Positions 29,449 to 46,319 of a DNA stretch of 64,000 nucleotides are shown here, one piece after another. The DNA lies in the sequence record PZ386980.1. One strand, given 5' to 3'. A model generated the notes under the pieces. It was not told where the DNA came from. It worked only from the letters and a program-made list of their open reading frames with translations, and ran no database searches. Position 1 is the first letter of the stretch. The number at the start of each line of letters is the position of its first letter. This stretch comes from a phage. A program made the position numbers and the translations under genes.

Positions 29449-29811
29449 TTAAAAGAATTTAAACTTTTTCTTTGACCTTTTATTAAATGCATCTTGTAGT
29501 TGCATTGTAATACATTTTTCTACATGAGGAGCTAACTCAGCTTTTCTTTCTTGGTCAAGAACAGCAAAGTCCATTACGACTTTTCCATCAACCCAATCTA
29601 ATTTTGTCACATACACAATGTGTGTAGAACCATCTTCTAGTTTAATGACAATCTCCTGGATAACATTTTCCATGGCAGATTTAATTATCTTAAGAGATTC
29701 ATTAAAAAGACGTTCTTTTCTTTCTTCTTCCCCCTCCGAAGAGGGGGATTCATCGATAATTTCTAGATCTAAATCTAAATCATCTTTATTCATTAAATTC
29801 TTCCATATCAC
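29449..29811 (-). CDS. 40: probable gp40 head-vertex assembly protein
   Basis: 120 aa between uvsX and 41 as in T4; start may be the second Met. Confidence 0.5.
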   Translation of the reverse strand: MIWKNLMNKDDLDLDLEIIDESPSSEGEEERKERLFNESLKIIKSAMENVIQEIVIKLEDGSTHIVYVTKLDWVDGKVVMDFAVLDQERKAELAPHVEKCITMQLQDAFNKRSKKKFKFF

Positions 29812-30967
29812 TTAACTGCTCGAGGTCAGTTTCTAAATCAGCAGCTGATTTACTTTTACTTTCTGGAGATTTAAATTTTTCAACCTTTGAGTTAATCAAT
29901 TCATCAACTTCAGCTTCAACAATTTCATTACTATCAATAGCACCTAACTGATAAGCACGTTTAATAGCATCTCGGAATGGTTGATGCTTAAATAAAGGAC
30001 CCCAGAATGTGGTGCAGTTGGTATCTTTTGCACGCCAAGATTTTTCTTCGCGAATCATCTCACCGGTTTCTTCATCAAGAAATTCACGAGCATACCAACC
30101 ATTTTTAGGTTTTACCACGAATCCTAATTCTAGAGCCATATCTAACAATCCAGAATAAGGATCGATACCGCCGTCAAATTTAACATCAATAAAGAATTTA
30201 CTTTTTTCTTTAACGGTACGAGATTTTTCTACATTTAGAACAAATTGATACCCTTGAAGATCAGAACCATCTTTAATCTGACGTTTACCGATAATGAATA
30301 CGGTATCAGCCGAATACATTACGCCTGTACCACCTGTCATCACGGTTTTACTAAACATTTCAATTGTTTCAATTGTATGGTTAACCGCAACACATGGAAT
30401 ATTTTTAATGCTAAAGTAAGGAGTAACAATACGGAATAATGACTTCAGTGATTTAGCACGAGTCATATCTGCCACAGATTTTTCATTCAAGGCATCTTCC
30501 GTTTCTTTCTTAGAAGCCATATTACCAATTGAGTCGATGAATACAATAACCTTTTCACCACGCTCAATAGCTTCAAGCTGGTTCACCATATCAATTTTCA
30601 GCTGTTCAACTGACTGAATCGGCGTATGAATTACTCGTTCCGGGTCAACTCCCATGGATCGCAAATAAGCTGGAGTAATACCAAATTCACTATCATAGAA
30701 TAGACAAACCGCGTCAGGATATTTGTTCAAATATGCCGCAACCATAGTCAAAGACATATTTGATTTAAAGTGTTTAGAAGGCCCTGCGAAAATAGTTAAA
30801 CCAGACTGCATGCCGCCATCAATCGCACCAGAAATAGCAATATTAAGCATTGGAATTTTTGTACGAATTACATCCTTTTCATTAAAGAATTTAGATGTAG
30901 TCAGTTCAGCAGTCATTTTAGAAGTGGAAGCTTTAATCAAACGGGATTTTAAATCTGCAATAGACAT
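29786..30967 (-). CDS. uvsX: UvsX RecA-like recombinase
   Basis: 393 aa, MSIADLKSRLIKASTSK...GLTIFAGPSKHFKS (Walker A); matches T4 UvsX. Confidence 0.92.
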   Translation of the reverse strand: MSIADLKSRLIKASTSKMTAELTTSKFFNEKDVIRTKIPMLNIAISGAIDGGMQSGLTIFAGPSKHFKSNMSLTMVAAYLNKYPDAVCLFYDSEFGITPAYLRSMGVDPERVIHTPIQSVEQLKIDMVNQLEAIERGEKVIVFIDSIGNMASKKETEDALNEKSVADMTRAKSLKSLFRIVTPYFSIKNIPCVAVNHTIETIEMFSKTVMTGGTGVMYSADTVFIIGKRQIKDGSDLQGYQFVLNVEKSRTVKEKSKFFIDVKFDGGIDPYSGLLDMALELGFVVKPKNGWYAREFLDEETGEMIREEKSWRAKDTNCTTFWGPLFKHQPFRDAIKRAYQLGAIDSNEIVEAEVDELINSKVEKFKSPESKSKSAADLETDLEQLSDMEEFNE

Positions 30968-31044
30968 TCATTTTTTCCATAGGCATCATTATATTTTCCT
31001 CACTGGTTAAAGATAGAGTAATTATAACACAATAAATTTAGGCA

Positions 31045-31893
31045 TTAATCAACTGCTATTGGATGAATAGCATTAAACTTATGAAATGCTTCTGATTTTT
31101 CTTTACGTGAAACGCACATGCGAAGAACCTTTAATGGTTCGTCTTCTTCACCCAACGATTTTCGTTTTTCAATATTAGAAGTTTTCCAACGAGCTTGCTC
31201 TGGAAACTCTCTATTAATCTGCTCAAGCGCTCTATTATGTTTAGAATTACTACGAATTGAACTGCACCCGCCAGGAGCTTGTGCTTTTCCAGATACAACT
31301 AGATATTTGAACAAGGCCAAATGCGGATAACCTTGATTAATTAAATTGAGAAATGCATACATATCTTCGCATAAATCAATTTTTCCATACCCAATTTGTT
31401 CTGTCGTAAGTTTTCCGAGGTCATACCATGTATTCGTGAATCCATATGAATTTTCACGATAATTACCCCAAGATGAAGTAATTTTAAAAATAGGTAGACG
31501 AGCATGGCCATGATAATACCCGCAATCCATGGCATCCTCAACATATTGAATCAATTCATAGAACTGTTCACGAGTCAATTGATTGACTTTATCTACGCAA
31601 CGACGATCATCTCTTTTTCGCATTGAACTCATACGAATAGTAGTATCATCGTCAATCATCCAGATTCGTTGACCTGCATACATATCGGTAATTGCTTTAC
31701 GAGTACCGGCAATTCCGTTTACATCATCAGGAATAGTTATAATTTTAGCTCTAGACCCATAAGCGTCATGATAAGCTTTTTCTTCATGTTCACGCACTAC
31801 AATATGCGGTTCATAATCAGTCGGAAACATATCAAGGGCAGAAACTGCCCTGACACGCTGATAACTTGGAATTACGAATTGAATCATTTCCAC
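31045..31893 (-). CDS. GT-A-like glycosyltransferase at the beta-gt locus (possible T2/T6-type beta-alpha-gt)
   Basis: 282 aa with DxD-like motif RIWMIDDDTTI; sits between uvsX and 42 where T4 has beta-gt but does not resemble T4 beta-gt. Confidence 0.5.
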   Translation of the reverse strand: MEMIQFVIPSYQRVRAVSALDMFPTDYEPHIVVREHEEKAYHDAYGSRAKIITIPDDVNGIAGTRKAITDMYAGQRIWMIDDDTTIRMSSMRKRDDRRCVDKVNQLTREQFYELIQYVEDAMDCGYYHGHARLPIFKITSSWGNYRENSYGFTNTWYDLGKLTTEQIGYGKIDLCEDMYAFLNLINQGYPHLALFKYLVVSGKAQAPGGCSSIRSNSKHNRALEQINREFPEQARWKTSNIEKRKSLGEEDEPLKVLRMCVSRKEKSEAFHKFNAIHPIAVD

Positions 31894-32624
31894 TCACCTT
31901 TATAGTCTTTTTTCACAATATGAGTTTCGCCAGTATTCCACCAATGATCAACCAAGTAAAAATGACGAGAATATACATGAAGACTTCCGACATTCCATAT
32001 AATAGAACCTGCTTTATACTGACGAGATGAATCGCCGGCATTCAAATCAGATACTAATTTATCTAATACGTATTTTTGCCATGCATAATCATTACGGAAT
32101 CCGAAGACCACGTCATTTGAGCGCATGCTTACTACTGCATTGACTTTCTTATCACGAATCAGGTACTGTACTGTATTAGTACACATGAAATCTGACATAC
32201 CATCTTTATTGTAGTCAAATTGCATGGATGGACGAGTATAAATCATGATACCACGTCGAGAATCAGGATTTTGACCAAGTTCAGCTAAACACATATCATA
32301 CTGGGCATAGTTATCTTCTGACCAAATAGCCCAACCATAATTCGAGTTAATTTCGCCTTTAGAAGATGCTACCTGCTGCCAAATCTTTGGTGTTTCACCT
32401 GGAATATCTTTAACAAACAAGCTCTTAGATTTATACCATTCAAGTTCACGTTGAATGTATTCATCATTAAGAGCGCCAAAAATAAACGGTTCATCTGCTA
32501 CAAATGATGCGCCAATAATTTCAATAGTTTTAACACCAGTTTTATCAACTACGAAATCTTTTTCTTTTAATGCAAGCCCCAAATGAAGACGGATTTCTTC
32601 AACTGTCATAGAGTCACTAATCAT
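31884..32624 (-). CDS. 42: dCMP hydroxymethylase
   Basis: 246 aa, MISDSMTVEEIRLHLGLALKEKDFVVDKTGVKTIEIIGASF...; matches T4 gp42. Confidence 0.9.
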   Translation of the reverse strand: MISDSMTVEEIRLHLGLALKEKDFVVDKTGVKTIEIIGASFVADEPFIFGALNDEYIQRELEWYKSKSLFVKDIPGETPKIWQQVASSKGEINSNYGWAIWSEDNYAQYDMCLAELGQNPDSRRGIMIYTRPSMQFDYNKDGMSDFMCTNTVQYLIRDKKVNAVVSMRSNDVVFGFRNDYAWQKYVLDKLVSDLNAGDSSRQYKAGSIIWNVGSLHVYSRHFYLVDHWWNTGETHIVKKDYKGEWK

Positions 32625-32631
32625 TTAAACC

Positions 32632-32781
32632 TCAATTGATACATTCATATTTAACTTGTAACAGTAATAAACCCCAACCTAAAATAATAGTTGGAATCAT
32701 AAGAGGAACCGTTACACTATAGTATATACTTATTATAATCATCAAGATTAAAAGCAACACTGTTATAATTTTGCTTTTCAT
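32632..32781 (-). CDS. tiny membrane peptide (49 aa)
   Basis: own translation MKSKIITVLLLILMIIISIYYSVTVPLMIPTIILGWGLLLLQ...; ATGA overlap with imm stop. Confidence 0.35.
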   Translation of the reverse strand: MKSKIITVLLLILMIIISIYYSVTVPLMIPTIILGWGLLLLQVKYECIN

Positions 32782-33429: not shown

Positions 33430-33681
33430 TTAAAACTTAACAAATAACTTTAAAGCATCTTCAATTTTAATTCCTTTTCTTACACCCATAACAGAAATTG
33501 GCTGTGACTGAAATTTTCCTTTACCATTATAAATTTCTAATCCAGTCACCATTCCATTTTGTTCTATAATACCGTAAGTGTTGCCTTCATTTTCAAATTC
33601 TTTAACTTTAAAGAGTTTATTAGCTTTTTCTGCGTTAATAACTTTTAAATTTTGAATAAAATTAGTTTGAATATTTTTCAT
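33430..33681 (-). CDS. hypothetical protein (83 aa)
   Basis: ORF track; ATG follows conserved cassette leader with GGAGG. Confidence 0.5.
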   Translation of the reverse strand: MKNIQTNFIQNLKVINAEKANKLFKVKEFENEGNTYGIIEQNGMVTGLEIYNGKGKFQSQPISVMGVRKGIKIEDALKLFVKF

Positions 33682-45116: not shown

Positions 45117-46319
45117 TTATTTTGTAATAATGTCAAACTGTTCTTTAAAGCAGAAGCTTGAATCTTGATGCTGATACAAAAATTCATAAGCTTTTTCGCG
45201 TTCGCGGTCATAAAGAGTTCGGTCAGATGACAGTTCTTTAATACGTTCAAATGTTGATTCCATGTCATTTTCATCAAACCAAATGATACCGCTATCATGC
45301 GAGGTCAAAGGAGTATTATCAACACGGAATTTTAAATTTTCGCCAGTAGATTTCCAAAATACCGGAATTGTTCCACATGCACCAAGCTCGAGATGAGTAT
45401 ATTCTAAAGAACGTTGTAGATATTTTTTATCCAACTTACTCAACTGATAACCAAAACCGGATTTACTCATACGTTCAAGCATTTCGCTATTTACATAACG
45501 GTCAAGAATTTGCGTTGGCAAATTAGGAGCAATTTTAATTTGGTCTACTTGATGAAGACGATAATACTCGTATGGAATTCCTTTTTCTTTAATAGGAATG
45601 AACGCTGGAGAACGTTCCAGACCTTCCATAATAGTACTTAGTCCTGCAGGTTTAAGATGTTTTTCGTGAAAATCAAACATCTGATAAAAACCTTTCCATG
45701 TAGTCGTACGACCAATCCAACGGTTGATATTCATGTTAATTTCAGAAACATCTTTCCAGTAAGTTGACCGAACCTTCGCAATATCCATAGGAGGCTGAAA
45801 GTTATATACGGTCGGTGCTTCTTCAATATCATCAAACAGAGAAACAGTTTCTGGATACCACTCTTTCATCAGAACTTTATTAAAATCACCATTATCAGAA
45901 TGGCTAAAAATAACATCAGCTCGACGAACAGTTTCTTCTAATCCCAAATTTCGACGCAAAGAAAGAGAAGAATGGTCATGCTGATAAACTACAACACGAA
46001 CAGAAGGTTTAATATTATCAATAATTTTTTTATAGTTATTAATAGTGTCTTCTTCAACCGAAGTAGCAGGAACTGAATTGATAATTAGAATATCACAATC
46101 ATTTACCAGCTTAAGTGTTTTATCGTATTCTTTTGCCAATAAAACCGGAATTGAAAATGATTTATAATCATGCGCGCAATTACGAGTAAATGATTTATCT
46201 TTAGCATAAACCAAAGTCACTTCATGACCATTTTTAATAAACCAATCACGTTGCTCGAGTGAGAATTTTGTTACACCACAACCTTCAAGACCTCGAGCCA
46301 TAAAAATACATACTTTCAT
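45117..46319 (-). CDS. agt: alpha-glucosyltransferase
   Basis: 400 aa, MKVCIFMARGLEGCGVTKFSLEQRDWFIKNGHEVTLVYAKDKSF...; matches T4 alpha-gt. Confidence 0.9.
   Translation of the reverse strand: MKVCIFMARGLEGCGVTKFSLEQRDWFIKNGHEVTLVYAKDKSFTRNCAHDYKSFSIPVLLAKEYDKTLKLVNDCDILIINSVPATSVEEDTINNYKKIIDNIKPSVRVVVYQHDHSSLSLRRNLGLEETVRRADVIFSHSDNGDFNKVLMKEWYPETVSLFDDIEEAPTVYNFQPPMDIAKVRSTYWKDVSEINMNINRWIGRTTTWKGFYQMFDFHEKHLKPAGLSTIMEGLERSPAFIPIKEKGIPYEYYRLHQVDQIKIAPNLPTQILDRYVNSEMLERMSKSGFGYQLSKLDKKYLQRSLEYTHLELGACGTIPVFWKSTGENLKFRVDNTPLTSHDSGIIWFDENDMESTFERIKELSSDRTLYDREREKAYEFLYQHQDSSFCFKEQFDIITK

Follow-up and report, generated by a model that had tools for sequence, protein, structure and literature searches.

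Which glycosyltransferase lies between uvsX and gene 42 of this phage, where T4 carries segA and a 351-aa beta-gt, is the question raised by the locus. The window analyzed here is a stretch of 64,000 nucleotides (record PZ386980.1), and a minus-strand open reading frame at 31045..31893 (-), 282 aa long when counted from a GTG at 31893, contains the segment RIWMIDDDTTI. The initial annotation had placed a glycosyltransferase of 282 aa between the two genes; the reading frame is present and Pfam searches confirmed both flanks, but the length had to be corrected. The supported coding sequence, named ba-gt or ggt (Pfam TAGT; beta-glucosyl-HMC-alpha-glucosyltransferase), encompasses 31045..31887 (-), stop codon included, and encodes 280 aa from an ATG at 31887, two codons 3' of the GTG. 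The GTG start was dropped in favor of this ATG, as close homologs all begin with MIQFVIPSY and the public annotations (RB51, T2, RefSeq) likewise start the gene at the ATG.

The locus is flanked downstream by uvsX at 29786..30967 (-), with matches to Pfam PF21134 and PF00154, and on the other side by gene 42 at 31884..32624 (-), with a match to PF00303, which encodes the dCMP hydroxymethylase that makes the HMC later glucosylated. The start codon of ba-gt shares the tetranucleotide ATGA with the stop of gene 42, and the two genes are probably translationally coupled. The same overlap is found in T2 and in the T6 record AP018814, but not in the T6 record MH550421, in which the coding sequence is annotated from Met20. 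On the uvsX side, just a 77-nt spacer (window 30968-31044) is present in the window, T2 and T6 at the place where T4 has segA, a GIY-YIG homing endonuclease gene located between its uvsX and beta-gt (segment 4571-5400 of the T4 locus).

Judged by its sequence, the locus holds a different glycosyltransferase that is unrelated to the T4 beta-gt, as the initial annotation had proposed. A BLASTP comparison of the two proteins revealed no similarity (best E = 2.2), and a tblastn search of the whole 64-kb window with T4 beta-gt gave nothing below E = 1.9. The Pfam families also differ, with PF20691 alone for the window protein and PF09198 for T4 beta-gt (9e-98). Descent from a beta-glucosyltransferase that was retained at the locus and diverged strongly has a negligible probability: its sole support is that both genes lie between uvsX and gene 42, and it is ruled out by the lack of sequence similarity, by the separate Pfam families and by the predicted GT-A fold of the window protein against the GT-B fold of the T4 enzyme. 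Both enzymes adjoin gene 42 in a syntenic slot, use UDP-glucose and form a beta linkage on T-even DNA. However, T4 beta-gt is a two-domain GT-B protein of unrelated sequence and fold, its acceptor is the hydroxymethyl group of HMC whereas that of ba-gt is glucose, and it is accompanied by segA, which is absent at the window locus.

Enterobacteria phages RB51 (NC_012635 / FJ839693) and RB68 match the window with 100% identity over positions 30500-32700 and 39500-64000; window positions 1-25000 straddle the start of those linear records. The RB51 ortholog, YP_002853998.1, carries the RefSeq name beta-glucosyl-HMC-alpha-glucosyltransferase, with the addition 'similar to T2, T6 b-gluc-a-gluc transferases'. 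Over the full length, the window protein has 99% identity with the T2 ortholog and 99% (ggt record) or 98% (second T6 record) with that of T6, and the T2/T6 affiliation suggested by the initial annotation is supported. It matches PHROG 842, 'beta-glucosyl-HMC-alpha-glucosyltransferase', with E = 8e-89, and, across profile positions 2-205 of 205, the TET-associated glycosyltransferase (TAGT) family PF20691, scoring 42.2 bits where the gathering score is 27.5. In T2 and T6 the gene likewise lies between uvsX and gene 42, and both phages also have its partner, alpha-gt. The T2/T6 gene was reportedly first cloned by Winkler and Rueger in 1993.

The assignment is already known from the RefSeq annotation and from published comparative tables, and nothing new is learned for the window sequence itself. 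In Table 1 of Thomas 2018, RB51 lacks b-gt and has an alpha-gt (91% to T4) as well as YP_002853998.1 as ba-gt at 99% (PMC6024577). Petrov 2010 likewise lists RB51 as containing alpha-gt and ba-gt without beta-gt, as gene content, the glucosylation patterns being then unanalyzed (PMC2993671). A 2026 paper places TAGT at a position syntenic with T4 beta-gt (PMC13390438), and according to a 2026 NAR paper the T4 combination of alpha-gt with beta-gt is rare (PMC13216743).

Relatives of the protein are encoded by 689 records of the phage collection. Identity is at least 90% in 473 of these, nearly all of them T-even-type phages of Escherichia, Shigella, Yersinia and Salmonella, and at least 95% in 472 of the 473. 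Phages of Klebsiella, Enterobacter and Citrobacter form a further group with 60-80% identity. T4-like phages of Klebsiella, Enterobacter, Salmonella and Citrobacter have a TAGT 64-66% identical to the window protein that likewise adjoins gene 42; in these phages it is paired with beta-gt and not with alpha-gt (PMC6024577, PMC2993671, PMC13216743), a pairing that raises the published question of whether TAGT enzymes discriminate the anomeric linkage of the acceptor. When 1.84 billion representative proteins were searched with a profile, 2129 relatives were found at E<=1e-3, including 734 at E<=1e-10.

The size of this family lends some weight to the reading that the window enzyme has a different donor or acceptor, glycosylating HMC directly or transferring a sugar other than glucose, as is probably the case for some distant TAGTs; many phages carry a solitary TAGT or a TAGT with a beta-GT, and specificity varies among them (PMC13216743). 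Nevertheless, a changed specificity is very unlikely in an enzyme that is 98-99% identical to those of T2 and T6, shares their synteny and, like them, has alpha-gt as its partner.

The preferred reading, a T2/T6-type ba-gt, was further analyzed at the level of fold and conserved residues. A PDB sequence search with the single window protein gave chance matches alone (E > 1), and a search with a 71-sequence profile gave nothing significant, the GT2 glucosyltransferase AvpGT (9jma) appearing at E = 0.27. The fold assignment therefore rests on structure prediction. In the predicted structure, the window protein has a GT-A fold, with a single Rossmann-like alpha/beta/alpha domain and a DxD motif following a central beta-strand; the DDD residues (D79-D81) are located at the end of the strand formed by residues 74-78. 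A GT-A fold and a sister relation to GT2 have also been described for the T6 enzyme in a 2026 NAR paper (PMC13216743).

Residue conservation was assessed in an alignment of 71 diverse homologs from the profile search, which are 18-64% identical to the window protein. Six residues, R11, D80, D81, D175, G186 and G207, are invariant in this alignment, and others are nearly so: I6 and P7 (69 of 71 each), D79 (Asp in 69, Glu in the other two), G206, R212 and P229. The DDD within RIWMIDDDTTI, noted as a GT-A-like DxD motif in the initial annotation, is thus a genuine conserved GT-A DxD motif; it corresponds to codons 79-81 of ba-gt (31645..31653 (-)) and is the predicted motif for binding of metal and UDP-sugar. 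The first beta-strand holds IPSYQR (codons 6-11, 31855..31872 (-)), the nucleotide-binding motif of GT-A and GT2 enzymes. The weak profile alignment to AvpGT (9jma, E = 0.27) has the canonical register, placing IPSYxR on IPTYNR and DDD on DDDD. In the same alignment, which is below significance, the ED of codons 174-175 (31363..31368 (-)) comes near the EED of 9jma. This ED, comparable to the (T)ED of GT2 enzymes, is a candidate for the catalytic base expected in an inverting GT-A transferase: E174 is present in 53 of the 71 homologs and the neighboring D175 in all of them. D175 may serve as the base, a role that would suit inversion, with a beta linkage being made from UDP-alpha-glucose.

Comparison with known GT2-like GT-A enzymes, such as the beta-1,3-glucosyltransferase AvpGT (9jma), SpsA (1h7l) and BcsA (4p00), reveals a sequence identity of just 8-15%. 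Unlike these enzymes, ba-gt has DNA-borne glucose as its acceptor, and a C-terminal extension of about 70 residues lies outside the coverage of the GT2 structures. The motifs found throughout Pfam family PF20691, IPSYxR, DDD, ED and GGCS..R, are all present in the window protein. A TET/JBP dioxygenase gene is absent beside ba-gt, the hydroxymethyl group is supplied by gene 42 at the nucleotide level, and the accepting group is a sugar that the base already bears rather than the base's own hydroxymethyl group.

The window encodes gene 42 (PF00303), ba-gt and alpha-gt (PF11440), whereas beta-gt was not found by tblastn over the 64 kb. The alpha-gt gene, reported in the initial annotation at the same coordinates, is located at 45117..46319 (-) and encodes a DNA alpha-glucosyltransferase of 400 aa (PF11440, E = 4e-237) that is annotated as a-gt in RB51. 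With high confidence, we regard the gene between uvsX and gene 42 as the version of the T2/T6 beta-glucosyl-HMC-alpha-glucosyltransferase (ba-gt/ggt/TAGT) that RB51 and RB68 carry, acting in a three-step pathway to gentiobiosyl-HMC. Identity, synteny, fold, motifs and gene content come from the present analysis, and the chemistry is taken from the T2/T6 literature. In the first step, gp42 would produce hydroxymethyl-dCMP, which would be built into the phage DNA so that HMC replaces C. Alpha-gt would then attach glucose, donated by UDP-glucose, to HMC through an alpha linkage. Finally, ba-gt, as an inverting GT-A transferase, would add a second glucose beta-1,6 to the first, giving gentiobiosyl-HMC; D79-D81 would hold a divalent metal and the diphosphate of UDP-glucose, with the invariant D175 in the putative role of base. 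The gene fills the slot that segA and beta-gt take in T4.

The extent of this modification varies between the two reference phages, as the gentiobiosyl form represents 5% of T2 HMC and 72% of T6 HMC (PMC6024577, PMC2993671, PMC13216743, PMC13390438). In Tequatrovirus phages with alpha-GT and TAGT but no beta-GT, HPLC/MS detected hmdC, alpha-glucosyl-hmdC and alpha-gentiobiosyl-hmdC (PMC13390438). We infer that RB51 DNA carries gentiobiosyl-HMC. As far as can be read from sequence, the genotype predicts glucosylation of the T2/T6 type, which was the proposal of the initial annotation, but not its extent, given that T2 at 5% and T6 at 72% have enzymes about 99% identical.

A possible though less probable reading is that the enzyme is a ba-gt ortholog with a marginal contribution, as in T2 with its level of about 5%, so that RB51 DNA would be mainly mono-alpha-glucosylated with some unglucosylated HMC, and alpha-gt rather than ba-gt would set the sensitivity to restriction. 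The T2 enzyme is intact and 99% identical to that of the window and yet yields just 5% gentiobiosyl-HMC, and D55 and R106 are common to the window protein and T2, T6 having G55 and H106 instead. On the other hand, gentiobiosyl-hmC is detectable in Durham Tequatrovirus phages that share this gene set (PMC13390438), the present evidence favors neither a T2-like nor a T6-like level, and this reading differs from the main one in amount, not in function. It is rather unlikely that the extent or the sequence context of gentiobiosylation in RB51 and RB68 differs from that in T2 and T6, with differences in the enzyme (e.g., R11) or in alpha-gt that might explain the gap between T2 and T6; were this so, the sensitivity to GmrSD- or Brig1-type defenses would be changed.

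Which host defenses can attack a T-even phage, among them McrBC, GmrSD/BrxU and the Brig1 glycosylase, depends on the type of sugar that HMC carries, and this sugar also affects the behavior of the DNA with restriction enzymes and CRISPR. The distinction between alpha-gt with ba-gt and alpha-gt with beta-gt is therefore useful for annotation.

A comparison with the individual T2 and T6 records (T2 BBF63203.1; T6 AXN58083.1 and BBF63468.1) reveals several differences. The T2 protein has the same length as that of the window, 280 aa, and four substitutions from window to T2: R11H, R13G, H40Y and P251S; the T6 proteins differ from that of the window by a few substitutions. Codon 11 (31855-31857) encodes Arg in the window, in RB51 and in 71 of 71 aligned family members, and His in the T2 record AP018813. 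A link between His11 and the 5% gentiobiosyl-HMC of T2 is pure speculation.

Both public genome records of T6 carry a lesion in the ba-gt gene, a different one in each. In MH550421, a CAG to TAG change creates an amber codon at position 10 (locus segment 3923-3980), and the coding sequence annotated from Met20 gives a protein of 261 aa without the invariant IPSYxR strand. In AP018814 (ortholog at locus segment 3135-3974), the N-terminus is intact and an in-frame 3-nt deletion converts the invariant DDD to DD. Because T6 is the classical phage with 72% gentiobiosylation, these lesions are read as mutations that arose in the stocks or as errors in sequencing. The 2026 AlphaFold 3 (AF3) model of the 'T6 TAGT' used YP_010067197.1 (PMC13216743); if this entry derives from the MH550421 annotation, the modeled protein would be a truncated form.

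A scan of the locus for promoters and terminators gave a count no higher than the shuffled expectation. It flagged a 7-bp GC-rich hairpin (AGGGCAG TTT CTGCCCT, 31835-31851 (-)) within ba-gt codons 13-18, directly upstream of the internal Met20 codon, that is kept with one change in T2 and T6 and may be due to chance. Two small open reading frames with no annotated counterpart in the T4 record lie beyond gene 42, and both are annotated in RB51. The first, 42.1, encodes a very hydrophobic protein of 49 aa between gene 42 and imm (32632-32781 (-)), and the second, RB51ncORF048c, encodes 83 aa between imm.1 and gene 43 (33430-33681 (-)) and is also present in T2.
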